Source: Protoeuglena noctilucae (Eukaryota). From it: a stretch of 64,000 bases of DNA. The notes under the pieces were generated by a model. That model was not told where the DNA came from. It was given only the letters and a program-made list of their open reading frames with translations, and did no database searches. This document shows, piece after piece, positions 2,079 to 63,000 of this stretch. The stretch is taken from the NCBI GenBank assembly GCA_958009085.1, contig OY253670.1, positions 1,426,001 to 1,490,000 of the forward strand, in the 5' to 3' direction. The position numbers were made by a program, and so were the translations under genes. Each line of letters opens with the position of its first letter. The stretch's first letter is position 1.

Positions 2079-3761
2079 CTACTCCAGGAACATGCGGAAG
2101 CGGCTTGCCAAGAGGGCAGTCCCAGGAAGGGGTCCGGGCCGCGGGCAGAGGAGCGTGGCCATCAGCTCCCCCTCGCGCTCGTGCAGAGCCGTGACGTACA
2201 CGAACCCTGCCACGTTCCTGCGGGGCAACGGCAGAACTCCCGACAATGTCCAGCTAATCCTGGGATTGAGCAGAGCAGCGAGTACACGAAAAGTTCGCCA
2301 CTCGCCTGAAGAGCAAGTCGCTCTCGTCCGCAGCGTAGGTGACGGCCAAGACGCGCTTGTCGAGGTCCTGGGGAGCGACGCGGGTCACCTTCATCGGGTC
2401 GCTCACGGGGCGAGCACCGATGGGGAGAGCCGTGGTGGGGAGGTTCGCCGTGGGGTTCGTGACCTGGAACACAGTGAGGCTGGCAGCCGGCACCACCTGC
2501 GGGGGGAGCAGAACAGATCGGCGGTGCCCTCGCAAACACAGCGCACGGGACGCGCACTGCGATGTCGCTCGCACCTGGGAGTGGGGCTGCAGGTCACCGC
2601 GGTGGCCATAGAAGTAATCGCGCAGCCGACCCTGGCGGGCTGCCCGGCGGTAGTCCTTGTCCCTCGTCACCACCCCGCCGCTCCTCGGGAGCGCCAGTAC
2701 CTCCACGTTGGACCCCCTGAGCAGCTGCGTCAGCTGGGCATACAGTCGGTCCTGCCCCACCACGCAGACGACATCCGCCTCGAAGGTGCGGACCGTGTGC
2801 AGGAGGAGCTCGAGACCGAGGCCCTCGACCCAGCCCATGGTGTTGATGATGTGGCCGGCAGCGTTGGCACGCGGGTCGAGCTCGGCACGCTTGGCCAAAA
2901 CAACAGCCAGCTGCTCCACCAGGTGCCGATACAGCTGTGGGTTGTCCGATGGGCTGATGTCGCCGTAGTAGAAGACTGCGCGACGGGGCCAGGGTGGGCG
3001 GACCGGACTGGGAGGCGGGGTCAAAAGAGCGTGCCAGGCGACAGGCGCATCTCTGGTCGCAACTCTGGTCCCCTGTGACCGTGAGTCCTCCTCCCTCGTC
3101 GCCTCTACCATCCCTCCACTCACCGAGAGGCGCTTCCAATGGAATGCCTTCCTCGATGTCGACAGGCGCCTCGAGGACCGCGGCGCTGACCGACCCTGGG
3201 ATGGTGATGGACCCCTGCCCCACGTCCACGTCCACCAGCGCCGGCTGCCACGCGCCCCTCGCAGCCCACGATCCCAACATGCGTGTGATGGTCGACTTGC
3301 CCGCGTCCATGGGGCCCGCCACCACCACGCAAGGACCCCGCGACTGCGCCTCAAAGGCACGCTGCCGGCGCGCATCCAGCGCCGCGTGGAGTTGGAGGTA
3401 CATGGGCATCGGAGTGTCGTCACTGACATACGCCATGGTCCCAGGCCCGCCGCTCGCGGGGGCTGGCTCCGCCGCCACCTCCACGTGCCCGCCTTCCCAC
3501 GAGTAGATGGCCACGTTGGTGCCGCGAAGCTGGACGCGCTCACCCAGACGCAACTGCAGAGAGATGCCAACATCTGAATCCATTCACCGCGGGTCCGCAC
3601 GCGCGCGATAAGCGCCGGAACCACGGGCCCGCTCTCGCCTCGGTCCCAAAGACCTCCGCCGTCCCCTCCTTCAACATGATTTCCGCCTCAGAGCCCGAGA
3701 GTACCTCCACGCGAAGCTCGCTCCGGGGCCGGATCTCGTAGCTGGTCACCGTCCGCGCCAT
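2079..3761 (-). CDS. CLP1: Clp1 polyribonucleotide 5'-hydroxyl kinase / mRNA cleavage factor II subunit
   Basis: Motifs are SELRVEV, GTAEVFGTE, P-loop GPMDAGKST, DVDVGQG, IINTMGWV, RSGGVV, DYFYG and NVAGFVYV. There are 4 introns, two with GC donors (3638, 2305). Stop is TAG at 2081-2079. Confidence 0.93.
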
Positions 3762-4163
3762 CGCAGCCCCGTCCCACGGCCCCCGCGGTGCAGCCTCGTT
3801 CCGCAGCCAGGCGCGGCACGCTGGGGGAGACCTGAGACCTGCTCGGGCGTTCACGTCGACTGACAGCGATGCCGTGATGGGCGGCAGCCAGGGCGTGGCC
3901 AGGCCAAATGCACAGCCGCCCCTGCGTCGGGGCGTCGGACATGGGTTAAACCAGGGTTTGCCACGGCAGCTGAAGCAGCACTGGCGCGAGCAACTCCCGC
4001 GCACTCTGCTATGAATGCCATCGCTGAGCTACAGCTGCAGTCCGCGTCCATCTCCGATTCTTGTCTGCAACGAGCGCGTGCGCATCCACTGTGGCGAGAG
4101 CACGGCTACAGTCCACCCGCCGCTGTCTCGCCGTCCCCAAGCAGTGACGTTCACAGCGCGGAG

Positions 4164-6416: not shown

Positions 6417-9251
6417 ATGCAGCGCTCGACGCGCCTGCTCGGCCGGCTCCGTGGCGACGCGAAGGTGGGTGCGGGCCCGTCGTCAAGGGAACATAAGGGG
6501 TGACAGATCTGCTGGTCCAGAGCATCGGCAAGGCTGGCGCTGTGCCCGACCTGGGTCCGTTGGTGAGCCCGCGCTCCTCCACCGTCGCGCAGTGGCTCGG
6601 CGCGCCGACCCGCTTCGAGGCTGCGGTCTTCGCCACGAATGGCACACACGAGCCTCTCGCCGGGGCGCTGCCTAACGCGTCGGCGGCGAGCCCTACCTTC
6701 CCCGTGTTGCTGGCCCGTGCGCACAGCACAACTCCCCGGGCAGGTGTGAGGGGACGCGTCGGCGTGGCAAAGAGTGAATCTCGACATCTGCTAGCGCGCT
6801 GCTGGTCCTGGGCCCTGCATGTCATGTTTCGAACCCCATACGCACCGGCCTGTACGACTCGACGTGGCCCCGCATCCCTCGCAGGCCCTGCCGCGTCCGA
6901 CTATCAGATCGTGTGTCCCCAGTGCAGCGCTGAGGTGGCGCCTCTCCCGCGCCCCGTCCCCGGGGACGCAGCCCGGGCCCGCCTGGGACTCTTCTGGTGC
7001 CCCCAGTGCCAGGCAGGCGTGCGCCGCGAAGCACTGCGGTGGGTGCCACGGGGCGAGGCCACCGCGTGGGCGTCGGAGCCGGGCAGGGAGACGCTGCACC
7101 CGCACGCGCCCCCGTGGCCGGCGCGGGAGGGCTGGGCAGGCCAGAGGGGGGTTGCGGCGGAGGCTACGAGGTCCGTTGGGGAGGGACCCTGGGGCGGACC
7201 CAGCTCGGGTGAGCGTGGCTAGTGCTGTCGCGAAGGGCGTGGGGTGGCTGCCGGGGAGACGCGCGGCATGCGCCCGCGGGCACGGATCCAGGCCACTGCG
7301 CACCCCCCCAGGCTCAGAGAGCGCTTCCCTGAAGGAGGAGCCGCAGCACCCGCACAACCCCGTTCCTGGCCCGCCCGAGGCGAACGTCAGCCACGGCGGC
7401 TACGGCCACACGGCGCGGCGCGTGTCCCATGACGCTGTCGCCAGCATCCTCTCTGGGGACATCCCCGACCCCCAGATGATGAAGGCTTACCTGGACAAGT
7501 ACGTCATCGGGCAGGAGCAGGCCAAGATCACGCTCTCGGGTGCGAGGTCGCGGGCGAGGCGGGCTGGCCTCACGCGCGATGCGTGCGCCCCCTCGGCAGC
7601 CCCGGTCCCGCTTCCCTCGCAGTGGCCGTGTACAACCACTACCGCCGCATCCAGATCTCGGCCCAGCACCGGCGGAACGAGATGCAGAGGGCCGCGCGGG
7701 CGCAGCAGTCGGCGGTGCTGCGCGCGTCGGGCTTCCACCACCCCGGCGTGCCTGCGCCCGGACTGGGGACCCCGTTCAGCGGGGGCGTGTCCCCCTCCCT
7801 GTCCCCCGGCCAGGGCCTCGTCGACATGCCCGGCATCGTCAAGTTCCCGGACGGCACCCCGTGGGGCGCGGCGCCGGGGGCGGGGCGGGAGCGGGGCCGC
7901 GCCGGGTCGCCGTGGGAGGAGCGCGAGCACGAGGCGGACGACGTCGCCGTGCACAAGTCGAACGTGATGCTGCTGGGGCCCACCGCGTCGGGCAAGACGC
8001 TCATGCTCGAGACGCTGGCGCGGTATGTGGGCGTGCCCTTTGCGCAGGCCGACGCCACGTCCATGACCCAGGTGGGCCTGCGCCGGGCAGGGGCATGCGG
8101 GCAGGGGCGCCGAGGTGCCCGCGTCTCATCCCCGCCTCTCCTTCCCGGCCCTGCAGGCGGGCTACGTCGGCGACGATGCCGAGATCGTGCTGCAGAAGCT
8201 CCTGGCCAAGGCGGACAACGACCCGCAGCTGGCGCAGATGGGCATCGCCTACATCGACGAGATCGACAAGATTGCGAAGAAGTGGGGATCGAGCACGTCG
8301 TCGGCGCGGGACGTGGGCGGGGAGGGCGTGCAGCAGGCCCTGCTCAAGGCGAGGGGCAAGGGTGGGCGGTGGAAACGCACACACAGGTGCTGGCGTCAGG
8401 ACGGATGACACGCTCCCCCCCTTCGCGCCCGCAGATCGTCGAGGGGTCCGAGGTCAACATCCCCATGAGCCGGCAGCAGGGCATGGGCCGCTCGGTCACC
8501 GTCTCCATCGACACGTCCCAGATCCTCTTCATCGCGGGCGGCGCCTTCGTCGGCCTCGACAACATCGTCAAGGCGCGGTCCGCCCGGAGCACCTTTGGAT
8601 TCAACGCCAAGGCCCCCCGTGCCGCGGGCCCCGAGGCCCCCGACCAGGACTGGCTGCGGGAGGTTGAGCACCGGGACCTGGTGTCGTTCGGGATGATTCC
8701 CGAGTTCACGGGGCGCTTCCCCGTGCTGAGCGTGCTGGGGGCCCTGTCCGAGGACGACCTGGTCCGCGTGCTGACGGAGCCCCGGGACGCCCTCTGCAAG
8801 CAGTACCAGGCGAGGGGTGCCGGGGGCCAGGCCGCGCCCCACGCCCCACCGCTGCTCGCCCCCCACTGGCTGGGATCGACAGCCCTCAGAGCCCCCCTGC
8901 CCGCAGCGTCTGTTCCAGATGGAGGGCGTGCCGCTCCACTTTGAGCCCGACGCCCTCCGCGCCATCGCCCGGGAGGCCATCAAGAAGGGGACGGGGGCGC
9001 GGTCGCTGCGGTCCATCGTGGACAAGCTGCTGACGCCCGCCATGTTCGAGGTGCCGTCGCTGGTGCGGTCGGGGAAGCCGGTGGCGGGGGTGCTGGTGAC
9101 GCGGGACGCGGTGCGGCGGGAGCGGCGCGCGCGGGTGGTGGAGGGGCCGGAGGAGTGGGAGGCGCTGGTGCCGGGGGCGGGGCGCGAGGACAGCAAGGGG
9201 GGGGCGATGGAGGGGGGGGAGGAGGAGGGGAGGGAGAGGGCGACAGTGTGA
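6417..9251 (+). CDS. CLPX: ATP-dependent Clp protease ATP-binding subunit ClpX, probably mitochondrial
   Basis: The N-terminus is presequence-like ([13 protein letters not shown]...ARAHST), followed by a CPQC...CPQC Zn motif. AAA+ motifs are [12 protein letters not shown], Walker [48 protein letters not shown] and TGARSLRSI. There are 7 introns, with GC donors at 8349 and 8810. Confidence 0.93.
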
Positions 9252-18600: not shown

Positions 18601-21600
18601 TCAGCCGGTCCAGCGCCCCGCTCCATCCGGTTCCCTCTCCCCCCACACGGCCCGTCACCCGCAGAGGGCCCAGGCGGACAGCCACACGGCCACCCGTGCC
18701 CTGGGACCCCTCTGGCCCCTCCTGGCGCGGCCCATGCCGCGGACCCTGTTGCTGGCATGCCTCCACAAACAGAGCCCTCCTCGAGCCCCTCACGGCTCGC
18801 AGCGCCCCCAGGCCCGCCACGACCGCGCCGAACTGCGCCCCTCCTAACGCCCCTTCCCCAACGAAGAGCTCCCACCGCCCCACCTGCGCTTCGACATGTA
18901 CAGCCGGCGCGCCCGGTACCCTCCGCGCCTTGACGACCAGCGAGGTCTCGCCGGACAGGGGCACGGAGGCGGCTGGCACCGCACTCGCAAGAGGGTCTCC
19001 GGGAACCCAGTGGGGCGGCAGAGCGGGCCACATGGCCAGGGCCACCCCCGCCGCTTGCAGGGACGACGCCATGGGCCGCGCGGGGCCGTCCGAGTCGAGG
19101 TACCATGACAGGCCGTGGGTGACGAGGGCCGCAGCGGGGGTGGCGGCCGTGTGCCTGGCGGCCACGCAGACCTCAAAAGAAGCGACGCGCACGTCCGCAG
19201 AGAGGGCCCCCGACAGCGCGGCCGACAGCGGCGAGGGGGCCGGGGGGTTCGGGGCATGCGGATGCCGAGGGGGCGCGGGCAGCCCGGCAGGCCCGGCAGG
19301 CCCTATACCCTCAGCAGCGCCGGGCCACGCGCCGCGCCCCGCCCCGCCAGGCACGGGCGATGGCAAGCCTGCGTCCTGAGTCGCCACGTCGCTGCGCCAC
19401 GTGCACACGTCGCTCCATGCGTCTGCAAGCGCATCTGTAGCCCCCGGGCGGCAGTGCAGGGCCACTCGCCCCAGGCGCACGCCCGCCGTGGCACGAGACC
19501 CGGGCGACGCACGGAGCGACACCTCGGCGGCCCAGGCGCCCGGGGGGTGCTCGGAGGGCGCGCCGTGCCCCGAGCGTGGCTCTTCGGGGGTCGCGGTCTC
19601 CGCACCCTGCGCCACGCCACCCCCTCCACCCCCCGTGTCGTCTGCTGCGCTCAGGACCAGCAGAGGCCGCAGGGCCCTCCTCGACGAGGGGTCCTCCAGC
19701 ACATGCACCAGCCGCACCACGCCGCCGCTCGACACCACGCACGGCAGCGGAGAGTCCTCCAGCCACACCACTTCGTCCACATCCCCAGGGTCGGATCCCG
19801 CCTGCGCCTGTGTGCCCTCTCCACCGCTGTCCTCGCCCTGCATGCATGTGGCGCCTGCTCCGCCACCCCCCGTGCAGAAGGGGAGCGACAGGACGGCCAG
19901 GTGCCCCAATCGCGCCGACACCGCCTCCAGGCCCTGAGGAGGCACGTCGACTGCACACGACAGCTCCGATGCCTCGACAGCCGCGGCCAGCACGTAGCGG
20001 GGGGTGCTGACATCGCTGCGCGGGGATGCCCCGGTGGGTGAGGGCGCCCCGCTGCTGGCCGGAGAAGCAAGGAGCACCGAGAGCTGGGCGATGCGCAGGG
20101 ACCCCCGGTAGTGCTGGGGGGGTGGAGGCTCCTTGGCCGAGGGCAGAGGCGGGTCTGGGAGCGAGAGCTCGAGGTACATTGTGGCTCGGCTTGTGCAAAG
20201 GCGCGCATCGCCCGCAGCCGCCATGCCCACCCCTCACCTTCGGCTTGCAGGTAGCTTGTCCACAGAGACCAGTAGCTGGCAGCGTCGGAGGGAAGCCTCA
20301 CCCCTCCAACCTTTCGCTCCTCTCTCTTCCCCTCTCCGCTCCTCCGGAACCACCCCCCCTCCCGCTTCGGCTCGTCCCCACTCCGGCGCATCGCCCAGCC
20401 GCCCTCCCCGCGGCCACCCACCATTTTCTTGAACCATCCGCCAGCCCCCCCAGGAGTGCCCACGCCCACCCCCGCTGCCTCCCCCATGGCATCATCCACG
20501 CCAGCGACGGCCCCCCTCTGCACTCCCTCCCCCAAGGCATCGAGGGCAGCGGCCGTGACCCCGTCCCCCGCAGCCTCGCCAGCCCGGCCAGGCGGGGACG
20601 TAAGCCCCGTATCCCCCGCCTCAGATTGCCTGCCCGTCCCCCCATCGGTCGCTGCCACGAGCAGCAGCCACAGTGCCTGCGCCTGGTCGGTGGTGGCGCA
20701 GAGGGACAGGCGGTCCAGCGCGACGTCCACGACCGTGCAGGCATCACCAGACACCTGAGGGGCGAGCGGGAGACACGGAATGAGGCGACAACGCTGCGGA
20801 ACATTCGCGGTTTCCCACAAACACACGGCCGCTCGCCTTCTTCCCGGGCAAGGCCAGCTGCAGCGTGAGCTCCCCCAAGGCGAGGACATGCCCACCCATG
20901 CGCGAGGCCCGCAGCAGGCGGTCGGGGGCCAGCCCCGGCAGGCGCGGCGCCCTGGCCAGCGACAGTGGGTCCACTTGCAGGCTGCGGGAAGAGAAGGGGC
21001 GCAACCTCAGCGACCCACGCCATCGCCTCCGCCCCTGCGCAGCGGCTTTGCCCGACCGAGACGCACCTGACCGTGGCTTCCGCGACGCGCACAGCCTTGT
21101 GGAGTCCCTCCCCCGCCCCCGCGTTGTCCACCGCGAGCTGCGGCACCAGCACCACCACGCTCAGCCCCTGGTGGACGATCCGGAGCACCAGGTTGCTCAC
21201 GGACACCTCCATGCGCCGCACGACGCTCGCGACGGCGTCCGCGATGCCGAACCAGGACAGCGACGAGGACCCCGCGGCCGGTGGGACCGGGGGGCGCGGG
21301 GGAGGGTCCTCAAACAGTGGGGCAGGGGCTCCGTCTGCGGGCTCGGAGTGGCGCCGCTCGCCCTGCCCATCTGGCCCCCGGGTGGTCTCGAGCACCACCT
21401 CGACGTTCTCCAGGTGCACGCGCGTGGGCTGCGTGGTGACGGCCGTCCAGGGGATGTCCAGGCGCAGCGTCCCCGCGAATGCGCGGACGGGGGCCAGGGG
21501 CAGGCCGTGCAGGAGGCTCTCGACATCCAGCTCGAGGTTCTGGAGCACGAGGTGACCCCCACGCAGCGACGCTTTCAGGTTGGCCGCGCTGGTGCCTGCG

Positions 21601-34179: not shown

Positions 34180-34866
34180 ATGCGGTTTCGCGCCCCGCTT
34201 CCCCTGCTCATGGTGTTCGCACCGCCGGTGATGCTTTTCATATCGGCGCTTTCGCTGATGCAGTTCGCCGCGCTGTACAGGGGTGAGTGAGGCATTTCGG
34301 GGGGGCTTTCGAACCAATGTCGCGAATTCTGTCCCATCGCGCCATGTGGACCCACCTGGAAGATGACTGGTGGTGCGCCACGCGGATCTGGCGGCACGAA
34401 GACGCGGCAGCTGCGCCGGGAGGGGACCGCTCCCTCGCTGTCCGGGGACCCGTGCCGCGGCGACCTGGCGCTCCCGATCCGCAGGCTTCGTGGAGTTCGC
34501 GCATGCGGAGGAATTCCCTAAGTGGCTGGTTACGGTTCAGCCGGGTGAGATGCAGCGCTTCGAGAAACTGGGGACCCGGTTTGGGGCAGCGCTTTTCCGA
34601 CCTGTGCGTCGAGCGGCAGCAGCGTCAGACCCATCCATACTGACCTCCTGTTTGCAGCCCTCAAACGCTTCGCGGACGTGCTGGAGGCTTACCTGGGGCA
34701 CGCCAACACGTTCAAGGCGAGCTCGCAGCGTATGCACACGCTGTGATGGGGGCTGGCTCGCCGGTCCGCCGCCAACCGCGGCTCCCTCCCCGCTGTGATG
34801 CAGCCGGAACTGACCCATTTCCTCCTCTGCTCCATTCTCCTCGCGCTGCTCATGGGCCGCGACTGA
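34180..34866 (+). CDS. Small hypothetical two-TM membrane protein (94 aa, 4 exons)
   Basis: Exons 34180-34282, 34485-34544, 34658-34716 and 34804-34866 total 285 nt in frame. Donors are GTGAGT, GTGAGA and GCGAGC, and all acceptors are GCAG. Confidence 0.65.
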
Positions 34867-44405: not shown

Positions 44406-47400
44406 TCAATAGAAGCTCCAGTCGGAGCAGTGGGTCAGATAGCCGTCGGCAATGACGGTGGCGGCCTGCATGCCCCGCGTCTGGCGGCGGCAGTGGAATA
44501 GGGACACCGACTCAGGGACGGCGGGCGTGGACGCCCCGCTCCCCCGCGTCAGCGCCAATGCCGTGGCGCACGCGCCCGGCGGCCCGTTGGCGCTCCCGCC
44601 AGCGGAGGCCGCGCCCGCCTCCTCGCGTGCCCGCGACGCCCTCGCACTCGCCACCGTGCACGCCCCCATGGGGTCTGCCACGCTCGACCGCACGCTGTCG
44701 CCCGGGGCGCCCCCCCACTGCGCCGCGAGCCCGTACCCAATCGTCGCGTGGGAGAGGACCCGCGACAGCTCCCGCCCCCACGCTGGGTCGTCCGCCCCGC
44801 ATCGCCCGGGTGACAGCGCGCCTGTCCACAGGCCCGCCGGCCCCTCGAGCGTCGGGCAGTCGTCCCCGAACCTCTCGCCGGGCGGCACGAGGGGCGCCAC
44901 GCCCCCGGGGGCCGAGAGCGTGGATGACGGCGGGGCTTGGTCCCCTCCCTGGGGGCCAGCCACGCCTGGGTTGCCGGGGGCCTCATCCACGGCAGAGTGG
45001 CACGCGTGGGAGCTGAGGAGACGCAGGCGGATGTTGTGGGCCCGCAGGACGGACATCATCGCGGCATCGAGGGCAGGGCTGCAGTGCTTGTGAGCCACGA
45101 TCAGGTCGGCGTCGGGGGCGGCGGCCAGCACGGCGTCCAGGGCGCGCCCGAGGGGCATGACGTCCCCGTCGCGGGCGACGAGGCCCGACACGAGGACCAG
45201 GTCCACCGATGGGGCGGCGGCGAGCGCCCAGGACGACGGGTCCGCCCAGTCGGCCGCAGCGACGACCGCCGAGCCCCCCGCCTTGGTGATGAGGGCCCGG
45301 TTCTGAGGGCAGGGACGGAGGTGGCACGATCAGCAACTGTCCAGGCTCAGGAACGCTGACCGATCGCCGACGACCCCACGCCCCTCGCCTTCTCCAGGTT
45401 GGCGGCCACGACACGCCTGGCGTCGGTGTCTGCTTCGGCGAGGACCACCGTCGCACCCATGACGGCGCACGTGAGGCCCACGACCCCTGTGCCTGCACCA
45501 CTCTCCAGGACGCGCAGACCCTTGCATTGGAGGTAGGGCCTGGAGAGGGGCGGGACCCAGGGCCGGTCAGGCCGCACTCTGCCAGCAGCTGTTGAGCTGT
45601 TCTGCCACCCCGCCACGGCGCTCACCTCAGGAAATTGGCGTCTTCTTCCGCGTCCCTCTCCAGGCGCTCAGCCACGTCTGCCGTGAGCCACGACTGGCGG
45701 CGGGAACGGGGACAGCGGTGATCGGGGCCTTCGTTGATGCCCTTGGGTGCGCCGTCCGCCTGAGTGGGCGCGGCCAGGTGCGCAGGCACCGCAGCAGGCA
45801 ACTCCGCGTGCACAGCGCCGCGCGACGCCGGCGGGGACGTCGGAGATGGCGTGGCCTGCGAGGGGTGGCCCGCACCCACGACGGAGAGCGACAGCCGGGC
45901 CGTGCTGGCATCATCCCCAGCCACCGTGACGCCGCACAGCTCTGTGGCACTCGTCTCAGGACCCGCAGGCGCGGCCGGCGAGGGGGGGGCAAGGGCCGGT
46001 GACGGTGTCGAGCTGGCCAACGCGACCGGCGCAGGGAGCAGTCGGAAGCACTTGAGAGGGGGGGGCGGGAAAGGAGCGGCATCCGCAGACGAGCGGCGCT
46101 CGGACCTGGGGGGCCGGGCACCCGTCCCCTGGGCTGCTGCCCCCGCCTGGGCCCACGGAGCCCCTCCCTTGCCGCCGTTTGGCCCTGCTTCCGGGACCGA
46201 GACATCACCGCAGTCGATGCCACCCCTGAAGGCGACGTCTGCGCCGTCCCCGTACAGCCCAGAGAGCCGGTAGTCCACCTGCTGGGTCACGGGCCGAGTT
46301 ACGGGACGGTCTCCCACGCTGCCCCGCCTCGGCGTGCCACTGGACCGACGCGCGGTGTTGGGGGGGCGAACGACGCTGGTGCGGCGTGAGCTCCTCGTCC
46401 TGCGATGACGGCGGGCATAGGTAGCTCGTCTTCGCTGTCGAAGCACGTAAGAGCATGAGCATGGGCATATGGGCACATCTCCCGCCGCGGCGTCCGCACC
46501 TCAGGCAGAGGAAGTCCTCGCTTCCGAGGGCGACGGCGTTGGCGCCCGGGGTCGTCGCGGCTGGCGTGAAGAGCTCCTCCAGCAAGAAAGGGTCCTTATG
46601 GTCCGCGGATCGGGGGACCGAGGAGGTCGTCCGGGACACGGACGTCGTCAGGCCCGGGCCCCACGGGGACGGGCGGGAGGTGGGCGCGCTCCCCAGGCTC
46701 CCTAGGTCCGTTGAGGGCCACGCCCCCAGGCGCGCACTCCCCGCCCGAAGTCGCCCAAGTCCGGGGGTGCTCGGGGTCCCTGGAACGCCCGTGTCGGCAT
46801 TATGCCGGCCTTCTTTTGCTGAAGATCCTCGCCGCGTGGGGCGCCGGGGGTCGCCGCCTTCGCACGCAGGGCCCGCACCGTTGAGCTCTGGTGGCTGCAC
46901 CCCCGCCCCTTCTCTCCCCACTGTCCCCACCGCAACCTCACTCGACCCCGCAGTACCCACCCCCACCTCCTCCAGCCCCGCCGCCACTGCCCCCGGCCCC
47001 AGCCGCGCATCACACGACCCGTGCCGCCCCAGCGCCGAGAGGGCGGCCTCGCTTTGGCCCCGTCCGGAGCGGCCCTCCCCTGGCTCCGGCAGAGCCTCTT
47101 TGGCGGAGGAAGACTTGCCGGCGTTCCGCGCTGTCCCCACGGCCACAGCGCCGCTCGACTCGACCCGCCGCAGCTCACGCGTCAGGTTGCTGGCCACCCG
47201 CGGGAGCCTCGCCACGGGCTGGGGACTGAGGGAGCTGATGGGGCTCGAGTGCCCCAGGCTGGAGCGCGGCACACTCTCTGGGCAGCCAGGCACCCCACCG
47301 GCGCGCTCGGGGGTGGGAAGGGCGGCCCCTGCTGCGCTGGGCGCCACGGTGCTCAGAGAGTGCGGCGTATTTGCTGCAGGCGTCGCGCAACCCCAGGACG

Positions 47401-49558
47401 CCGTACCCCGCCGCATCCCGGCGGGGGAGGTGACGGACGGGGCCGGAGTGTTCGGGGGGGTGCTCACGGCTGCGTGGAAGGTTGCCGTGGAGCGATGGGA
47501 GCCCAGGGGGTCCGGCGCATGGGCATGGCTGCCTTGGTGGCGCGTTTCCCAGAACCCTTGGTGGCGGGTGGGGGTGACGTGCATGGGCGGATGGTGTTGC
47601 GCGCGAGGGTGGAGGGCGTGGTGGCGCAGGTGGTGGGGGTGAGGTTGTGACGAGGGGTGTCCATTGCTTTTGCTGTGGCCGTGCCGGGCAGGGTTGTGGC
47701 TGGCTGAGCTGGCCAGGGTCCCCTCCGCACGTGGATGCGAGCGAGAGGAGCTTGAGCCGAAGGCCTCGCGCATGGCTGCGGGAAAACGCGGATGTGGCGA
47801 TTCACTTGCATGCACCACCATGGAATGGCGCCTCACGCTTCTGTGCCATGTGCACGCACCCCATCCATGGGTCACCTGAGCACATGAGACGCAGCTTGCG
47901 GGACAGGTCCGACGGGAAGCCTTCCGTGCCCTCCACGACCTCGTCCCAGCTGCCCTCGTCTGACGCGTCAACACCTGATTCGGACCCCGACTCAGCTTCC
48001 ACTCTTTGCCCCCCGCCTGTCCCCACGGCCCCTTCTGCTTTCCCCGTCCCCCACGCCACCGCCGCCGCCGCAGCTTCTCTGCCCTGCACCTCGGCGCTCT
48101 GCTTCCGGAAACCGAGCGCGGTCCCCCCCTCGACCACCTCCCCAAACGCCCACACCGCCTGCCGGTTCGTGTCCCACACCACACGGCCAGGCTCACCACC
48201 GCCCCTCGTCCCGTCCTCGTCCTCCGTCGACGATCGCATGCCTGGCATCGACGCGACCCGAGTCCCACCGCCCGTCCCCTGCCGCGCGAGTGCGGCATCG
48301 CGCCCCTCCTGGTTGCCGCCCACCACCCCGGGCGCCACTGCCTGGTCCGCGACGGCGAGGCCCGACCCCTGCGTAGCCGAGCTCTGCCGGTAACGGGCCC
48401 GGGAAGGCAGCGGGAGGGAGGCGCGCGCACGTGGCCCTGTCGACCCGCAGAGCTGCGAGTGGGACGCGCTGGCCCTGCGGCAAGCGGGAGACCGGCTGCC
48501 TCTGCTGAGGCCTGGGGCGGCGAAGGCGGCAGCGTTCGAGCGGGTCGCGTGTCTCGCCTGAGCTTCTCCAGGACGCTGCCCGTGATGCGGGGGTCGTTCT
48601 GTACGCTGAGCATCACGTCCCCAGACATGCGCCGCCGGCAAACACCCGCATCCTCCGACAAGGACGTGGAGCACGAGCTTGAGGGCCAGTCCGGATCCTG
48701 ATTGACGATGCCCTCGAGACGCCCCTCGTCACGGCGCCACGGACGTCGCCGCGTCGCGCCTGCCAGGTCGCTGCTCGCGGGGGCGTTGGCGTCCACGATG
48801 GCGCGCGCCAGCAGCACGCTGCAGTCGAAGTCCTCTGTGACGACTCCAGGCGCCTCTCCAGCGTCGATCGAGAGGCCCCGGACGCCGATCTGCGCGGGAA
48901 CTTGCTGGATGGTATCAGCGCAGACATGCGGAGCCAAGTTTCTGCCACAAAGCAGCCCGTGCGGCTCGCCTGGAGGCCCACATCAACTTCGTACTCTGCC
49001 GCGAGCGATTCCGCCTGCTTGAGGAGCAGCAGGGCGTCCCGTCGCGTTGTTGCCACGTCTCCTCCAGCGGCCTTCTGTGAGCGCGACTCGCGGCGACTCG
49101 CGTGAGGGAATAAACACGCACTCAATGCAGTCATTCGTCGTTTTTGGCGGCACGACTGCAAAACACACCTCGGCAGCGCGGGCCAGCGCCCGCGCGCCGT
49201 CGTGAACGCGCCCGAGCCTGAGCAGAGCCCGGCCCAGCGCCAGCCACGAATCGGCGTCGTCCGGGTTGCGCGTGGTTTTCAATTGCGTCTGCTCTCCGTG
49301 TCGAAAACCTGCCGGAAGCGGGTGCAGCGCCGGATTTCGCACGGACATCGCATCATACTTACCCACTCGAGCGCGGCTGCAGCGACATAAAAACGCCCCT
49401 CGCATGCTCAAGGTGCGACATCGAGCGATCATTGTTTCGGTCGGAGTTTCCCTGGGCGGGAGCTCCCTCACCTCGGCCGGGATGGCTGTTGCCCCCCGGG
49501 CCAGGAAGGGAAAGCAAAGCCTGGAGCCGAGGCATAGCCACCCGCACGGGGTCTCCAA
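44406..49558 (-). CDS. Large protein with N-terminal TPR-like repeat, long disordered middle and C-terminal class I SAM-dependent (METTL21/Methyltransf_16-like) methyltransferase; start uncertain
   Basis: TPR-like NPDDADSWLALGRALLRLGR, and methyltransferase motif I GLRVLESGAGTGVVGL followed by GATVVLAE and VVAANLEKN. About 9 introns join in phase, with GC donors at 48969, 48557 and 45388. Confidence 0.7.
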
Positions 49559-49849
49559 GACGAGGCAAGATATGGAGTCCGTTCTCGGCCCGCCAACTTA
49601 GCAGACACACGTGCAGATTACGCAGTGCAGCCCAGGCCCACTACACACTATAGAGGGCATTTCATGGTGCCCAGGGACACGAGATAAGACGAACACCAGC
49701 ATGGAAGCGCGTGCGGGGAACGGAGCTGATGCAAGTCGCGACGTGGTTGCCTGCGCGCCGAGTGCCAGAGATGACTCCACCAGTTGCAAGGGATCGGACG
49801 CCTTCCGGCTCTGCCATTCCTCATCCCTCTGTCGTGCAAGGGAGGCGTC

Positions 49850-52459
49850 ATGCAGGCCCTAAAGGACCGACTGCAGGGCTACTGGGACCGTGCGGACCCG
49901 AAGGTCCGCGCGGCGGCAGGCGAGAGGGACGCGCGGATCACCGCTATCGTGTCGACGGGCCGGATTCAGAGTCCCAGTGCCTTTTCACCGCTTCGCCGAT
50001 CCAGGGCAGAGGCCCGCGGCCTCACAAGCATCGCATCGACGACGCCCGCGCATTCCAGCGCTTAATTTGCTCCTCGTTTGTCACGGGACACGACGGCCTC
50101 TCCTCTCGTCTCGTCGCGTGGCGGCTGGCGCCGGGGACCCAGGTTGTGATCGCTCCGCCGGGCGATCCTGCTGGGTCCCGGGCGCGCGCCTTTTTTATTC
50201 CGGTGACGCGCAACCGGGGGGACGCCGTCCCGCGGCGTCCCTCGGGGGCGACGTTCTCCGCACGCCGAGCCCTTTCACTGGCTGGCCGCGGCGCGCCGGG
50301 ACCCATCTCCGGTTCGCGAGAGCGCGTGACCGCTGCCCGAGCTCGTCTCGATCGATTCCAGCTGCCCTCCGCCTCCGTGGGATTTCCGGGAGCGCGCGTG
50401 AGGCCGGGTCTGTTCGCGGCCCAAATTTGAGCCCCAGCATCAGCCTGCGCCGCGCCCTCGCCGGGCGCCCGGACCGTGCGAGCCGTCTCGCTCCGTGACC
50501 CGGAGCATGGCCCCGTGGCCTCCCCGACGGCCCCAGGCCTGGGGCCCGTGCCGTCCATCACCGCTCGCCATCCTTCCGCGCCCCCAGTTGGTGCTGCCGT
50601 CGCGACCGTGGGGTACGCCGCGTACAGCTATGCGACGCGCGTGCCCTCGTCGGGGAAGTACCCGATTGGCACGCTCCCCGCGGACGCCTACGACGTCGTC
50701 ATCGTGGGCGGTGAGGGCGACATGCTGTGGCGCGCCTGGTTCAGTCGTGACGCGACTCGGCGGGGGCCCTTGGCGACGCCGGTGAATCCGCCTTCTCCCC
50801 GCAGCTGGGCCGTCGGGGTCTACGTGCGGGTACTATGCGGCGAAGGGGGGGGCCAAGGTGGCGCTGCTCGGTGAGGGCTGGGCCCCAGCGTGGTACATGC
50901 GGCGGTGTCGCTAGCCACGCGCGGGGCCACGCACGGCCATCGCAGCCGATCCCCCGGCGCCGCGCGGTCGCAGATAAGGAGCACTTCCCCCGCGACAAGT
51001 ACTGCGGGGACGCCGTGTGTGCGCTGGCCATCAAGGTGCTGGAGGAGATGGGCGTGATGGACGAGCTCAAGGCGAACGGGGAGGCGCACTTCGCCGACGC
51101 CGGCGGTTTCGTGTCGCCGTCGGGGATCTGCTACATCGGGAGGTGAGGCGGCAGGTCTTATCCAAGCGGTGTGAGCCCGTCCAACGCGACACACAGCACC
51201 CGAGACGCAGAGGGCTGGCTCGCTCCGCTGCAGGTCGGAGCAGAAGCTGGGCGAGGCGGCGGCGTGCGCCGTGAAGCGCATCAACCTGGACAAGCGCATC
51301 GCGTGGAAGGCGCGGGACACGGGCGCCAAGCTAATGGAGGGGTTCGAGGTCACGGAGGCGAAGTTCAGCGCCGAGACGGGGCTGTGGACGGTGTGGAACA
51401 CGAAGGGGGAGACGGTGCGCGGGCGCGTGCTCGTGTGCGCCGACGGGGCCACGTCGCGGCTGGCGACCAAGCTGGGCTACTGCACGGAGGCGCCGCGGGG
51501 GGTGTGCTCCCGGGCGTTCGTCAAGGGCGGCACCCACAACACGGGCTTTGACGGGGTGTGCTTCTACCAGCGCGAGTCCCTCCCCGGCTACTCGGCCATC
51601 TTCAAGCACCCGAACGACGAGCTCAACTACTGCTACTACCTCATCCCCACGGACGGCAAGGGCAACTGCGGCAAGGTGAAGGAGTCGGACCTGGCGCGCC
51701 TCCACAACGACGCCATCAAGAACGACCCCTTCATCTCCCGCGCCCTCGGGCCCAACGCCGAGATCGGTGAGCAGGCCCCGACCGTGAGCGTTGCCACAGC
51801 AGCCGGGCTTGGTTCCCCTGGGCCGCGTGCGACGCTTCGACCCCCTCCCCCTCTCGCAGAGCGCATGAAGGCCGCCCCGCTGCGGCTGGGCGGGCAGGGC
51901 CTGCGCACCAACCACGACGACCACCTGGTCATCATCGGCGACGCCGCCGGGCACATCGACCCGCTGACGGGCGAGGGCATCCACACGGCCATCCTGGGGG
52001 GCCGCGCGGCGGCGGAGACGGTGCTGGCGATGCGCAAGACCGGCGACTTCTCCAAGCGCTCTACGGCGCAGTACAACCGCAAGGTCCAGAAGCTCTTCGC
52101 CCACGACTTCGGGGCGTCGGTGCTCATGGCGCAGGCGGTGTACAGGCGAGCAAGCAGGGTTGCCGCCGGGCGGGAGCGGACCGTCCCTGTCGCCACCTCA
52201 GCCGACCGCCTCCGCCTCTCGCTCCAGGTTCCCCATCCTGATGGACGCGGTGGCTTCGGAGACGCAGCGCCAGGGTGACGTGATGATGGCCAAGTGGGCG
52301 GAGGTGATGACCAACATGCGCCCCAAGACGTTCTTCCTGCGCCCCGACATCGCCATCAACCTCGGCATCGCCATCACCCGCGAGCTGTGGGATCAGTACG
52401 TGATGGGCAAGCCCGACAGGTACGCGTCGGGGGGCAGCACGGTCGCCAACTACAAATAA
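49850..52459 (+). CDS. Geranylgeranyl reductase-family FAD-dependent oxidoreductase with N-terminal membrane anchor
   Basis: Motifs are YDVVIVGAGPSG, FPRDKYCGDAV, RINLD, VCADGATS and IIGDAAGHIDPLTGEGIH. There are 6 introns, with GC donors at 49920 and 52146. Confidence 0.88.
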
Positions 52460-52694
52460 TGCGCCAATCGAGGGGATGGCGCAAGGGCGCCATGCGGCTG
52501 GACGGCTGGTGGTGCGGTGTAGGTGGGGCTGCGATGACCTATTCAGGAGCATAGAGTTGAACAGCTCTCGTGGACTAAGGTCGGGTCACGGAGGACGGCA
52601 GGTTGTGCACTCTTTGTTTGTGAGGCAATGGCCTGGACAGGATGGAACCTGGGATCGCCACTTTCCCCTCGCCGAGCCTCGTGCAGAAGACCAG

Positions 52695-53310: not shown

Positions 53311-53679
53311 ACATTGTCGAAAGAGCGCGGCGCGCAGATCTCGCAGCGCCGCTGCGAGCGGACGACAGAACCGGGTCTGTTTCTGACTGGCACGAGCAAC
53401 CAACAGCACCGCCGCTGCCTGCTCAGACAACAGTTCGCGGTCCTGGGGTGCACAACGTGTCGCATTAATACATACGCTTCGTCTGCGATCGCCAGCACCG
53501 AGCGCGGCTGGTGCGTCCGCGTCTGCTTTTCAAAATCGGCTCGATCAGTTTATGGGGGACTGCCGCGGTCGCCGAGCCCTGCATCCTTGCCACAGTAGAA
53601 CTGGTGAAAAAATGCATCTCATGAGCTTACTCGCTTTGCGTCAAACACCGCAGGGAGAACTGCCAGGCGGGGGAGGGTC

Positions 53680-55962: not shown

Positions 55963-55976
55963 GCAGCATTGACGCG

Positions 55977-56124: not shown

Positions 56125-57879
56125 TCACTTCTTCCCCTTCTTCTTCCCCTTCTTGCCTTTCCGGCTGTCCAGCACCGTCCGCCACCACGCCTGCACCACA
56201 TCCACCGCCATGTCTGCGTGACGGGGCAGCCCCTGGCCAGTGAGGGTGCGTGCCCTGGTGGACCCGCCCCCGGCCCACCCAACCCCCGCGTCCCTCCCCC
56301 GCCTCACCCTGTCGGATTTTGCGCATGGCCAGCTTGAGCTCCTCTTTCATGCGGTCCCTCTCCGCCTTCTCGAACTTGACGCGCTCGTCCCGCATCAGCT
56401 CCGTCATGGTGGTCATGTCCTGCACCAGCTGCGCCTCCTTGTCGCTCGCCTGGGGAAACACGGGGAGTGGGGGTCAATAAGCTTTGACGAAACGTCGCTG
56501 GCCCCAAGAGGTGGCCGCGGTGGCTGCGTCATCTCTGGTGACAGGCAGGGCCCGACCGCCCACCCCCCGTCACCAGCTGGTGCTCCTCGTACTGCCCCTG
56601 CTTCTCTGTCATGAGCGCGTCGTAGTCCTTCAACGCGTCCTGCAGGTAGTTCATGGCCTGCCCCTTCTTGGTCTTCTCCTGCAGCTCCAGGTTGGCGTGC
56701 CGCTCCCGCGTGGCGCGCAGGCGCCGCAGTAGGTCGTCGCGCTCCTTCTCCAAGCGCTCCTTCTCCATGCGGCAGTGCACCGCGTCCTCCTCCCGCTCCC
56801 GCGCCTCCACCTCGTCCGTGTCCACCATGGCGCGGCGGAAGCGGTCCGTCACCACCTGCGGGCGACCTGATGCAGATGTCGCACCGTGCCGGGCAGCGTC
56901 TTTCCATCACCCCGCGACGCCCCCTGCCTCGCCTTCGTGTCCGCCTTGAGCCTCTCCTCCAGGCGGTCCAGCTCCGCCGACTCGCGCTCCCGCTCCTCGC
57001 GCTCCATCTTCAGGGCCGCCATCAGGGAACTGCGCTCCTTCTCGTTGCGCTCCAGGCGCTCCTTGGTCTCCATGCTCTGCTCGTTCCGGCTCCGCTCCTC
57101 CTCCACCGTCATGTCCAGGCTGCGGGGGCCAGGAGGGAGCGCTAGGAATGTCGCATGGCCGCGGCTTCCCGCAAGCCCCACGCGGCCAGCGGCGCCCGCG
57201 CGCCGCACCTCTGCTTCATGATCTCCCGCAGACGCATGAAGAGGTTTACGACGTCCTGCATCGCCTCGCTGGGCTCGAGCACGGGGCCCGTGAAGAGGGC
57301 ACGCTCGCGCGGTGACGCATGGATCGCCCGCAGCACGTCCGTGGTGGACTTGAACACCTGCTCGCTCTGGATGTCCGAGCGGTTCGCCTGGATAATGGAA
57401 CGGTGCGTGTCTGCGGCGGGGCGTCGCGGGTACGGGTTGGCAGGGCGGCAATGGATGCACCCGCAGCTGTCGCGGCCTCCGATCGCCGAGCGGCGCCGTC
57501 ATGGCGGCGCACCGAGCAAGTCGAGAAACTCGTCCGGAAAGCCCGCGTTCTCGAAGTCGCCCCGGTCGAAAACAGCCTCGGTGACCCGGGAGAGGATCCT
57601 GCACGACACAGCGGGATGGAGGCTCCAGCGCTCAACGGGGTGGAGCGCTTCGCACGCGAACGAGTATCGCATGACGCACACCGCGGTATCCACCTATTCA
57701 GCATGTCGGCTCGGGTCAAGGCGCGCCCGGCGCGGCGCGGCGTGACGCTGCGAGACCATGTACTCGGCGGATGACCGCGGGCGAGCCGACGACCGCATCC
57801 GCCGCCCACCCGCGCACCTGAGGTTCACGATGGCATCATCCAGGACGTTGATAATCCTGTTGCCTTCCAAACTGTTCAT
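56125..57879 (-). CDS. DRC10: Dynein regulatory complex subunit DRC10 / IQCD-like coiled-coil IQ protein
   Basis: N-terminus EGNRIINVLDDAI and FKSTTDVLRAI, a long coiled coil, and a C-terminal IQ-like VVQAWWR followed by KGKKGKKKGKK*. GC donor at 56932. Confidence 0.75.
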
Positions 57880-59991: not shown

Positions 59992-60075
59992 AGGGCACGC
60001 GTGGGTGGTGCGGCACGGGCGAGGGCAAGCTGCATGTTGAAATCTCGCCCACTACACGTGCCCGCTGGCCACCCG

Positions 60076-63000
60076 TCACAATCGGTCGAACAGGGGCAGG
60101 GCATCCGACGCGCGCCCCGCCGCCTCCGACCCCGACTGCGCCAGGGCTGCCACGAGCGACGCCAGCTCCACGAACCCGCCCCGGGCACGCAGCAGCCGGT
60201 CCCGCCGCTCCTCGCCTGCGAGCGCGACTCGTGTGTGCCCTTTGCTCTCATTACAACCGAACCTCAACAGCTGCGGGCCCATGGGCTGGCAGGGGACGGA
60301 TGCAGAGAGACAAGACAACGTCGATGCATGCATGAGTATCGCCCGTCCCCTTAGCGGCCGCGCACCGGAGAGGTCGACGCCGGCGGCCAGGGGTGAGGCG
60401 TGGACGGCGCGCATGTGGTCGCCCAGTGGGGAGGCCAGGACAGCCATGGAGAAGTCGAGGGCTATGTTGGCGAAGCGGACGTGGGGACTGCGGAGCAAGC
60501 CCTGCGAGGGAGGGGCGGGTGGAGAGGAGTGGAGTGAGCAGCGTCGATCGACAGAGAGGCCTTGGTGACAGGCGAGGGCCCTGCGTGCAACGGCACCTGC
60601 AGCAGGGGGATGGCCTCCAGCACCACGTCCAGCGATATGGCGCTCTTCCGCGCACCGGCCATCACGCTGAGGAGGTCCGCACCCACCGACAAGTCCCCCG
60701 CTCGCTGCGAGTGCGAGGGCCAATGAGAGGTGACAAGCACGGCGCCGATGCGTTGCACGTGGAACAAAAGCTCAGGCGCGACTTCGTAAAGCCCTCCAGC
60801 GGCCACCTGGCGCCCTGCCCAGCACTCGCATCCCCACCCTCACCCGCGCCGCCTGCACGGCCCCCCGCGCGTCCCCGCGCTGCCAAAAGCCCCGCACCAC
60901 CTCCAGGTGCCCCAGGCGCGACGCCAGGATGCTCTTGACGGTCGCGTGCTTGTCCATCAGCGCCCGCAGCGAGGCCTTCAGCTCCTCGCTCGCACTTCGG
61001 GGGCCTGACCCAGGCATCCCAGGGTTCCAGGGCTCGCCCAGCCCTGCACCGTCCCCTACAGGGACCCCCGCAGCTGCCCCGCCGCGGACCAAGTCATCCA
61101 CTCCGTCCCACAGCCCCGCGCCCTGCGGCATTGCCCCCCGGGGAAGCGCTGGCCCGCCCTGCACCCCCATCCCAGGGTAGCGCACCTCTACCGTGGGGCT
61201 GCGGGGGCCACTAAGCGAGCGGCGGGGGCGGGCAGGCGGCGGGGACGCGCTCAGGTCGTGCGCGGGCGCGGCTGCAACTGCACTGCCGCCACGGCTGAGA
61301 TGGGACGAGGGGTCTGCGTAACCTGCAGACAAGGGGTGGCGCTGCAATGACATGCGGGGCGAGCAAAGGCACGCCACGATACCATCAACAATGCCTGCCG
61401 TTGCCAAACTCCTTGCCTGCGCTCCCCGCCAATCCCGCCGCCCTCCGCCCCGCACTCGGCGCACGCGGCCGGGACCCCGAAATCGACCGGGGCACCAGTC
61501 CCAGGTCATCGTCCCCTGCGCCTGGGCCACCAGCCGCGGTTCCCGGGTCCCCGGGGGGCCGGAAGGCCTCCTCGCCCAGGGGCCAGGGGCCGTGTGCCCC
61601 ATCATGTGACGTGGCAGGCCCCTGCGCCTGTCCCTGCACCGCCGCGTCCCCCGCCCGCCCCTCCATCCACTTGCGCCCGTCCCTGCCCCGCGGCCCGGCC
61701 GAGGCCGCCTCCGCCGCCAAACGCGCGAGCACCGGCCCCGCGCTCCCATTCGCCATCAGGGAGTCCCCCGGAGCGCCAATCCCCACAGACACCATCTCCA
61801 CTGCGGACCGGGCCACTTGACTCTGGGTCACCTCCGCCCTCTCCCCACCCCTTCGGTTCCCCCCCACTTCGTCCACGACCCCGGCCCCCGTCGTCCGGGG
61901 TCGGTCCGTTGCCCCTTCGTCCCCACGACCAGCCCCCACGCCCCCACCGAGCCCCCAGCCCCCATCTCCCCGCCCGCCGCCGTCCGCCCCAACCTCGCCA
62001 CGCGGCCCCGGCAACGGCGCAGACAGGCGAGGGCCGATCCGCGTGGCCGCCACCCCTGCCATCACCTGCCCTAGCTCCCCGCCCTCCCCATCCGCGACGT
62101 CCCCCGCCCGGCCCGGCCCCGACCGTCGCCCGGCCACCGCCCCGCCCGCGCGCCCCTCTGGCGGTGTGGTCGTGCGGACCGACGACGTCCTCCCCGAACC
62201 CTCCCGGGAAGCGAGGCCCTCTGCCCCGCCCTCCGCGGCGCGGGACGCGGGCCGGGATCCTTGACTCTGGCTGCGGCTCGTACGCCGGTCCTCCGCGGCC
62301 CCCAGGTCCGCTGCTGCCGCGTCGATGTCAGAGTCCCGTGACGGTGGCGCATAGCCCGCGTACCCTCGCGCAGACAGCTGCCGTCCCCAAGGTCGATGTC
62401 CGCTCTCTCGTAGGTGAGAAGCATGTGCCGGCGCCTCCGGCCGCGTGTGGGGCTGCGGGTGAGCGAGAGGCCATGTAGGAGGGTTGCAGCATGCGGGTGG
62501 CTGCCCACGTCGCCCCGTGGTCACTCGGCATTCCACCGCACCTGCGCCGCTCTCGTCTGCGGGGCCACCCCAGGCATCACGTAAAAGGACTCGGAGGGCA
62601 TCGACTCCCCCGGGGGTCCCACCTCGGCCTGGCCACGGCCGCTGGGGAGGGCGCCAGGGTGGCCCGACGGTGCAGGGGCAGCGGCGAGCTTCGGAGTGCC
62701 CGCGTGGTCCCTTCCTGACGGGCCCGCACCGCCGTGTGCGCTGAGTGGCCCCGCGCCCTGCGCCCGTTGCGGCCGCCCCGGCGACCCCGCACTGGCGTCC
62801 CCCGCTCCTGGCGCAAAGCCCCCGAGCCCAGCCACGTCCAAGGCCCAGAGCCCCACGGAGCCGTGGCGCGCGGCGCATGCGATGACGCGGCTGTTGCGCA
62901 GGACCATGTCACGCACGTTGCCCCACGGAGCGTCCACAATGCCCAGCTGCGTGGAGGGCTCCCAAGCCCACGAGCGGCACCCCTCGGACGTGGCGCCGAG

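Follow-up and report, generated by a model that had tools for sequence, protein, structure and literature searches.

In plants and animals, GC-AG introns reportedly make up about 1% of introns and have an enhanced donor consensus, as Burset in 2000 and Thanaraj and Clark in 2001 are said to have described. A baseline of about 1% was also taken for granted in an earlier sequence-only reading of the DNA analysed here, and it agrees with the figure given by Iwata and Gotoh for 61 species, 1.3% of 2.46 million introns (PMC3033335). In the same survey, much higher shares are listed for Aureococcus anophagefferens (39.6%), Micromonas pusilla CCMP1545 (22.2%) and Chlorella (7.7%) and are tied to a high GC content, given as 69.5% for Aureococcus and 65.9% for M. 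pusilla CCMP1545; the 5′ end of U1 reported for Aureococcus and M. pusilla is the ordinary AUACUUACCUG (PMC3033335). Another estimate puts GC-AG introns at about 14–17% in Aureococcus and about 14% in Pelagomonas (bioRxiv 10.1101/2024.10.30.620910). In Emiliania huxleyi, GC donors are given as 56% (56–60%); they were verified with transcripts, and GT-biased models are described as having mis-predicted genes (Feldmesser et al. 2014, PMC4028052). The literature has documented GC-AG introns as abundant in GC-rich algae since 2011, the published cases being Aureococcus, M. pusilla, Emiliania, Pelagomonas and Chlorella.

The window, the 64-kb stretch of DNA analysed here, has a G+C content of about 70% (0.65–0.75 along its whole length), and the GC at codon position 3 of its genes is 0.907 (about 91%). 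Its proteins are green-algal, with a pedinophyte as the nearest relative, and in a one-gene tree the window sequence clusters with a pedinophyte; two proteins of the window have their closest named relative in the pedinophyte YPF701, at 78% and 52% identity. YPF701 shares the GC content of about 70% and is a different species from the source of the window; the preprint on it describes a nuclear genome of 27.9 Mb with 70% GC and strong codon bias, and the word "splice" is absent from its main text, so donor types are not treated there (bioRxiv 10.1101/2021.10.04.463119). Prasinoderma coloniale (69.8% GC) and Chloropicon (0.5–0.7 introns per gene) were weighed as possible sources, but neither is found among the named hits; Pelagomonas and Aureococcus were discarded for their low number of introns per gene and because the proteins of the window are green-algal.

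Like Aureococcus and M. pusilla CCMP1545, the window combines very GC-rich DNA with an estimated GC-AG share far over the usual one; their shares of 39.6% and 22.2%, however, are genome-wide, whereas that estimated here is about 10–17% in one window, and they have few introns per gene, as against about five in the window, whose host is neither of the two, its proteins being nearest a pedinophyte. E. huxleyi is GC-rich as well, but GC is the majority donor there, whereas here it is a minority donor with a consensus stricter than that of GT. In common with the GC-AG introns of plants and animals (about 1%), those of the window are U2-type, with AG before the donor, RAG after it and the mismatch at +2 offset by the other pairs with U1, but they are about ten times more frequent. 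The window extends the established association of a GC-rich genome with plentiful GC-AG introns by one more independent green-algal lineage, and nothing is overturned.

GC-AG introns in RNA contigs and conserved genes

The sequence-only reading had named 19 donor coordinates, nearly all said to have the motif AG|GCRAG. All 19 donors are G-C in the sequence and 17 have the full motif, the exceptions being 28662 (CGG|GCGAG) and 39412 (CAG|GCGAC); GC..AG termini are present in every GC-AG intron listed below. Eleven of the 19 sites were verified independently, four by spliced metatranscriptome contigs, one by a contig overhang and six by gap-free collinearity with orthologues or with the MINDY-3 structure. 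The core observation that GC-AG introns are frequent in the window is confirmed, and by their termini and donor match, and in five cases by removal from RNA, the verified introns are U2-type GC-AG introns.

RNA joints were analysed at positions 33001–53000 with metatranscriptome contigs of four runs; among the 15 joints listed, of 34 found, 11 are GT-AG and four are GC-AG. The four are an intron of a small gene at 34717..34803 (plus strand; AAG|GCGAGC), spliced in contigs of all four runs, with GC..AG as its sole canonical placement; an intron of a methyltransferase gene at 45303..45388 (minus strand; AAG|GCGAGG), spliced in contigs of three runs; and the first and last introns of an FAD-dependent reductase-like gene (GGR), at 49920..50587 (plus strand; 668 nt; CAG|GCGAGA) and 52146..52227 (plus strand; CAG|GCGAGC), spliced in three and in all four runs, respectively. 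None of these joints has a GT placement inside the allowed shifts. The junction at 52146–52227 is gap-free in 7/7 orthologues, and a relative's contig (L002) is collinear across that at 45303–45388; an unspliced contig spanning 45303–45388 is present in run X2. In a bromodomain gene (GTE), the intron at 38863..38963 (plus strand; CAG|GCAAGC) is seen in a contig overhang of run X4, in which 11 + 5 letters equal window positions 38847–38857 followed by the shared TTCAG, giving the junction 38862|38964; with 16 letters on the upstream side, this support is a hint. By the spliced contigs four GC-AG introns, and by the overhang a fifth, are missing from mature RNA.

Comparison with orthologues revealed six further junctions that are continuous to the residue once a GC-AG intron is removed. 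In CLP1, the junction of the intron at 2218..2305 (minus strand; donor 2305, CAG|GCGAGT; 11.6 bits lost by the gene model when this donor is forbidden) is gap-free in 6/6 orthologues, as is that of the intron at 3554..3638 (minus strand; donor 3638, GAG|GCGAGA; AEVFGTE|LRLGERV), directly after which the Pfam profile CLP1_N picks up again at its position 34. In ClpX, the introns at 8349..8434 (plus strand; AAG|GCGAGG), compared with intron-free bacterial ClpX and a relative 71% identical, and at 8810..8906 (plus strand; CAG|GCGAGG; CKQYQ|RLFQ) both give gap-free junctions (five references listed; 6/6 in a second test). The RRP12 intron at 27404..27525 (minus strand; GAG|GCGAGC) joins LGFCKVVVM|RLPVEDL gap-free (eight references listed; 7/7 in a second test). 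The intron of a MINDY-3/4 gene at 23893..23994 (minus strand; CAG|GCGAGG) is 102 nt long, in frame and stop-free; the spliced product is collinear with PDB 9rmd_A, and the read-through ORF matches this structure in two pieces (chain 191–253 and 252–298) with 32 unmatched residues between them. Pfam searches with single exons were too coarse for placing the MINDY junction.

One of the named donors, 28662 in RRP12, was rejected: it would add 10 residues absent from 8/8 orthologues, and with a GT donor lying 30 nt further upstream all eight align gap-free, without this insertion, the intron being GT-AG at 28565..28692 (minus strand; CGG|GTGAGG). The use of nearby GT donors, which the reading had named as a way in which its sites could fail, therefore applies to this site (donor 28692, by orthologues), whereas the four RNA joints allow none. 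For the katanin p80 intron at 61323..61416 (minus strand), the GC donor 61416 (CAG|GCAAGG) has an in-frame rival in the GT donor 61455 (CGA|GTGCGG); the two lie 39 nt apart, both keep the frame, and the final gene model uses GT, with an A at −1 that occurs in 0/22 verified GT donors.

At the six remaining sites (20836, 48557, 48969, 56932, 33103 and 39412), the support is the gene model built here; 33103, 39412, 48557 and 48969 do not figure among the 15 listed joints of 34, a listing that speaks neither for nor against them. GC-AG introns are probable in VPS13 at 20755..20836 (minus strand; AAG|GCGAGC; 20.1 bits lost if forbidden), in a coiled-coil (DRC10-like) gene at 56856..56932 (minus strand; AAG|GCGAGG; 17.1 bits), where reading on through the intron runs into a stop after 24 or 81 nt, and in the methyltransferase gene at 48890..48969 (minus strand; CAG|GCGAGC; 10.7 bits) and 48475..48557 (minus strand; CAG|GCGAGA; 8.4 bits); a search for related loci with the exon between the latter two (48560–48889) found none. 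They are possible in the "TRIC-like" ORF at 33103..33249 (plus strand; CAG|GCAAGA; 147 nt; 3.3 bits) and, off the AG|GCRAG motif, at 39412..39537 (plus strand; CAG|GCGACC; 126 nt; 3.0 bits), both in frame and stop-free. The "TRIC-like" ORF has no relative in Pfam or PDB, the coiled-coil gene gives a weak match to DRC10 in PDB (E = 0.3), and single-exon Pfam searches returned no match for the "TRIC-like", DRC10-like or TPR exons. GC donors had been deemed necessary for keeping conserved proteins in frame. In the gene model the 82 nt at 20836 shift the frame; the introns at 23994, 33103 and 39412, being stop-free and with lengths that are multiples of three, are not demanded by it.

Donor consensus and C at +2

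The claim that GT donors are looser than GC donors is borne out by the verified introns, as the full consensus is found in 11/11 GC donors (AG|GCRAG) and in 3/22 GT donors (AG|GTRAG; Fisher p = 1.9e-6), the GC candidates having come from a consensus-guided reader that weak GC donors may have escaped. For RNA-defined introns alone the counts are 4/4 and 2/11 (p = 0.011); matches to the U1-pairing consensus number 5–7 of 7 in GC donors and 4–6 of 7 in GT donors (p = 8e-4). All 11 verified GC donors have G or A at +3, A at +4 and G at +5, and RTATCCTT is not present, so they are not U12-type by donor. In four genes compared with orthologues, none of the verifiable junctions (21 of 32) called for a weak GC donor.

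The suggestion that C at +2 is nearly equivalent to T is not supported by the modelled exons. GGCRAG occurs in them at 60 sites, as against 62 ± 7 expected, with no predicted donor among the 60, whereas GGTRAG is depleted (8 vs. 15.9 expected). The longer AGGCRAG occurs once in exon interiors, as against 4.6 ± 2.1 expected, with 30 of 500 shuffles as low; this depletion is a hint, partly circular as the exons are derived from the model.

Frequency and gene prediction

With the gene finder confined to strand territories, the gene model of the window contains 109 introns, 84 GT and 25 GC, and about eight of the 25 are doubtful. Roughly 11–17 credible GC introns remain in a total of about 100, a share of between 1 in 9 and 1 in 6 (about 10–17%); the share of about 1 in 6 put forward earlier is the upper end of a range that reaches down to 1 in 9. 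The shares seen in RNA (4/15) and by homology (6/21) are overestimates, because the RNA stretch and the three homology genes were picked for their many claimed sites.

Counting the motif on both strands of the window did not reveal an enrichment of AGGCRAG (33 vs. 26.2 ± 5.8 in 100 shuffles, 13 of which reach 33), so the proof of GC introns must rest on RNA and homology. The 25 modelled GC introns are not, by themselves, evidence either, since 26 decoy GG donors were accepted when GG replaced GC (13 for GA). In terms of score, the GT-only model reaches 3130 with 88 introns and the model admitting GC donors 3600 with 109; the gain from GC donors is 470 bits, and only 32 are gained when GG and GA are added on top. 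The expectation that GT-only predictors mis-model these genes is upheld, as the GT-only run drops 470 bits and 21 of the 109 introns. Gene prediction in GC-rich algae such as the host must admit GC donors, the GT-only alternative losing about one-fifth of introns, and the strictness of AG|GCRAG is a simple prior usable by annotators.

Origin of the GC-AG share

The GC-AG introns are ordinary U2-type introns with C for T at +2, spliced out like the others. Strong pressure towards G and C (about 70% GC; 91% at position 3) probably converts the donor T to C repeatedly, and the C would persist only where all the other U1-pairing positions match (AG in the exon, GCRAG in the intron), a full match elsewhere making one mismatch with U1 snRNA tolerable; the result would be a steady GC-AG share of about 10–17% with near-perfect donors, alongside GT introns with looser ones. 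A presumed GC pressure and a presumably unchanged spliceosome are, together, the probable explanation of the share. Iwata and Gotoh point out that GC content by itself is no sufficient explanation, Micromonas RCC299 having 64% GC and only 2.7% GC-AG introns (PMC3033335).

That contrast (22% in M. pusilla vs. 2.7% in RCC299), by which GC content does not predict the share across the species listed, and the share itself, about ten times the usual 1.3%, can be read in favour of an adapted spliceosome, the idea of the sequence-only reading, which would take +2C more readily by way of an altered U1 or U6 snRNA, a modified base, U1C or some other protein of the U1 snRNP; RNA modification or U1 snRNP proteins were proposed by Iwata and Gotoh (PMC3033335). 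Such an adaptation seems unlikely here, as the verified GC donors are still fully matched elsewhere (11/11) and the 60 exonic GGCRAG sites without a predicted donor are what is expected of unchanged machinery. Two GC-AG-rich algae, Aureococcus and M. pusilla, have a canonical U1 5′ end (PMC3033335), so a variant one is not needed as an explanation; an Rfam scan of the window gave no matches and no snRNA. It is far less probable still that the sites are a modelling artefact, in which AG|GCRAG arose by chance at high GC and the RNA is really spliced at neighbouring GT donors or retains the introns. The unenriched motif, the decoy GG donors accepted as often as GC, the error at 28662 and the unspliced X2 contig across 45303–45388 would fit such an artefact, but four RNA joints leave no possible GT placement and six junctions align residue for residue without a gap; for 11 sites the artefact is refuted.

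An equally remote prospect is that a transposon which generates introns (an introner) and carries a GC donor is spreading, with the GC-AG introns as its copies. Introners are reported in the GC-AG-rich Aureococcus and Micromonas (PMC9481584), and five of six introns of one window gene are missing in a relative, which points to a fast-changing intron number in the group. All-against-all BLASTN of the 109 modelled introns, however, revealed no similarity between different introns, the sole matches being a chance one of 21 nt and one between two models that overlap, and the introns have a median length of 100 nt rather than about 200. In the gene with the missing introns, at least two intron positions (residues ~86 and ~320) recur in more distant relatives, an indication of intron loss in the relative.

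Besides the favoured combination of GC pressure and unchanged machinery, there is a small chance either of a natural experiment, with T and C swapped at +2 among close relatives under GC pressure, or of a real change in the U1 snRNP or U6 that widens the tolerance of +2C; either, if true, would be a tractable system for the in vivo cost of a +2 mismatch in U1 pairing. A direct GT/GC difference is supplied at one orthologous intron, the first of the reductase-like gene, which has CAG|GCGAGA here and a GT donor (CCG|GTGAGT) in a relative with 83% protein identity (relative contigs L001/L002).

GC donors defined by RNA and homology

The sequence-only reading named 19 coordinates as GC donors, and all 19 carry G-C at the proposed position; 17 of them also fit the pattern AG|GCRAG (exonic AG, then GCRAG), the exceptions being 28662 (CGG|GCGAG) and 39412 (CAG|GCGAC). 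The G+C content is 65–75% across the entire 64 kb window, with 90.7% GC at third codon positions, and AGGCRAG occurs 33 times on the two strands (26.2 ± 5.8 in shuffles, 13 of 100 of which reached 33), while AGGTRAG occurs 15 times (9.2 ± 2.7 expected). The occurrence of AGGCRAG by itself proves nothing in such DNA, and RNA and homology were therefore needed to test the claim.

Contigs of four marine metatranscriptomes, all sequencing runs of a single study and containing 42–65% of the sampled words of 44000–53500, were aligned to positions 33001–53000 only (20 kb); any share obtained there is biased because the stretch was picked for having the largest number of claimed sites. Among the 15 of 34 joints listed, each slid within its permitted ambiguity, 11 were GT-AG and four exclusively GC-AG: 34717–34803 (+), 45303–45388 (−), 49920–50587 (+, 668 nt) and 52146–52227 (+), none of which permits a GT placement. 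These 15 joints leave out sites 33103, 39412, 48557 and 48969 and are uninformative for or against them. A contig of run X4 has an overhang at 38959 that corresponds to 38847–38857 plus the shared TTCAG, i.e., a spliced junction 38862|38964, with one side comprising only 16 letters.

Comparison with orthologues supports further GC donors. In ClpX, splicing at 8349 and 8810 leaves no gap relative to bacterial ClpX, which lacks introns, or to a relative of 71% identity (6/6 references). The CLP1 junctions at 3638 and 2305 are likewise gap-free against full-length orthologues (6/6), as is that of RRP12 at 27525 in every orthologue used (eight in one alignment, 7/7 in another). The other GC donor proposed for RRP12, 28662, is refuted, since it inserts ten residues absent from 8/8 orthologues; the GT donor 28692 (CGG|GTGAGG), gap-free against orthologues, replaces it. 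The MINDY read-through frame aligns with 9rmd_A, a chain of the solved MINDY-3 structure, as two segments (chain residues 191–253 and 252–298) separated by 32 residues without a counterpart in that chain; after splicing, exact collinearity is obtained, which supports the candidate intron 23893–23994 (in frame, stop-free) as real. GC donors make up 6/21 verified junctions across the four genes, a share inflated by the choice of ClpX, CLP1 and RRP12 for their two claimed sites each. The observation of GC donors in the sequence was real, with one site wrong (28662) and several lying outside the verified set.

Donor consensus and share of GC introns

Among donors backed by spliced RNA contigs or homology, the full consensus AG|GCRAG was present in 11/11 GC donors, and its counterpart AG|GTRAG in 3/22 GT donors (Fisher p = 1.9e-6); for RNA-defined introns only, the counts were 4/4 and 2/11 (p = 0.011). 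The verified GT donors were variable, with A at −2 in 10/22 and A at +4 in 12/22. The proposal that strong flanks offset the C at +2 is supported by this difference; GC donors in plants and animals, too, reportedly follow a stricter consensus (Burset 2000; Thanaraj and Clark 2001). In modelled exon interiors, where motif counts are partly circular because the exons derive from the same gene model, GGTRAG was depleted (8 vs. 15.9 ± 3.8 expected), GGCRAG was not (60 vs. 62.4 ± 6.6), and AGGCRAG occurred once (4.6 ± 2.1 expected; equally low in 30/500 shuffles). A C at +2 that would function only given a full match at the other donor positions fits this picture.

A small Viterbi gene finder, which scored codons by log-odds and splice sites by an acceptor matrix and a donor matrix with only GT donors in its training set, was run on strand territories; it yielded 109 introns (84 GT, 25 GC) and recovered 14/15 RNA introns. 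When GC was replaced by GG or GA as a decoy, 26 and 13 such donors were taken, respectively, and the count of GC introns alone is therefore no evidence. Within this model, the total scores, unlike the counts, do discriminate GC from decoys: 3130 for GT only, 3600 with GC, 3322 with GG, 3308 with GA and 3632 with all four, the decoys adding only 32 bits after GC was permitted. Forbidding candidate donors one at a time cost 20.1 bits at 20836, 17.1 at 56932, 10.7 at 48969, 8.4 at 48557, 3.3 at 33103 and 3.0 at 39412, the last two introns being in frame and stop-free. Instead of 61416, the final model favours a GT donor (CGA|GTGCGG) located 39 nt upstream, whose A at −1 is found in 0/22 verified GT donors. 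About eight more GC introns of the model appear spurious (1360, 12948, 35420, 42487, 42754, 42964, 47771 and 63981), and 42964 is contradicted by RNA. The GC-AG share of the window is estimated at 11–17 of ~100 introns; at its upper end, this agrees with the suggested one in six.

Relatives and precedents

The reductase-like protein and RRP12 are 78% and 52% identical, respectively, to those of Pedinophyceae sp. YPF-701, with other core green algae next, and a one-gene tree (topology only, support values not considered) placed the window and three relatives beside this pedinophyte. The YPF701 genome has 27.9 Mb and 70% GC, and the word "splice" is absent from the main text of the preprint (bioRxiv 10.1101/2021.10.04.463119). 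The literature searched, of limited coverage, yielded no report of pedinophyte GC-AG introns.

A published survey of 61 species and 2.46 million introns puts the GC-AG share at 1.3%, rising to 39.6% (Aureococcus), 22.2% (Micromonas pusilla) and 7.7% (Chlorella); its authors linked high GC to an elevated GC-AG share, and the U1 5′ end is canonical in Aureococcus and the two Micromonas species (PMC3033335). Other works give ~14–17% for Aureococcus and ~14% for Pelagomonas (bioRxiv 10.1101/2024.10.30.620910), and 56% GC donors for E. huxleyi, where GT-biased gene models were mis-predicted (PMC4028052). Because of this precedent in other algae, a variant U1, U6 or U1C, as had been envisaged, would not be needed as an explanation. 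Abundant GC-AG introns are already known in kind, and the window adds a further case, the main use of which lies in annotation.

In two metagenome contigs of a relative, L001 and L002 (72–74% GC, 83% protein identity to the window), the reductase-like gene has its first intron, orthologous to that of the window and in the same place, with a GT donor (CCG|GTGAGT) instead of the GC donor of the window (CAG|GCGAGA); exonic AG accompanies only the latter. Compared with 49850–52459 (+), the relative (L001:1633–3602, L002:3144–5113) retains this intron only, the other five being absent; the relative has probably lost introns, since breaks near residues 86 and 320 occur in more distant relatives. No sequence is shared among the modelled introns, and there is therefore no sign of an introner family. 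The first intron (49920–50587, 668 nt) is the longest RNA-verified intron here and its L001/L002 orthologue is also long (~520 nt); a first intron that stays long in genomes of mostly short introns may contain a regulatory element.

Neighbouring gene structures

The reductase-like ("GGR") gene, a putative rather than proven chlorophyll-pathway geranylgeranyl reductase, carries FAD_binding_3; its relatives go by "conditioned medium factor receptor 1" in several sources. Its transcript ends at a poly(A) overhang at 52574, and a T-run overhang at 52695 marks the end of a minus-strand transcript of a small gene (~52695–53600). The "TRIC-like" label at 31967–33842 (+) is unsupported, its exons giving no Pfam family at E ≤ 1 and no PDB relative.

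VPS13 contains one open frame of 3413 codons (9995–20233, −), split in the gene model by a few short, model-only introns. At 35932–37230, a plus-strand model overlaps a 571-codon minus-strand ORF, and contigs of run X2 show nine single-letter differences and one inserted C relative to the window, pointing to another strain or allele in the sea sample. At 44406–44420, the 3′ ends of convergent genes overlap, with the poly(A) overhang of the plus-strand gene at 44420 and the stop of the minus-strand methyltransferase gene at 44406. A single RNA contig of 3094 nt fuses both transcripts there. The "methyltransferase" model may represent two genes, one with the TPR part and one with the methyltransferase part, or another structure. 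At 48071, 48516 and 48534, several RNA contigs diverge from the window and continue in unlike letters.
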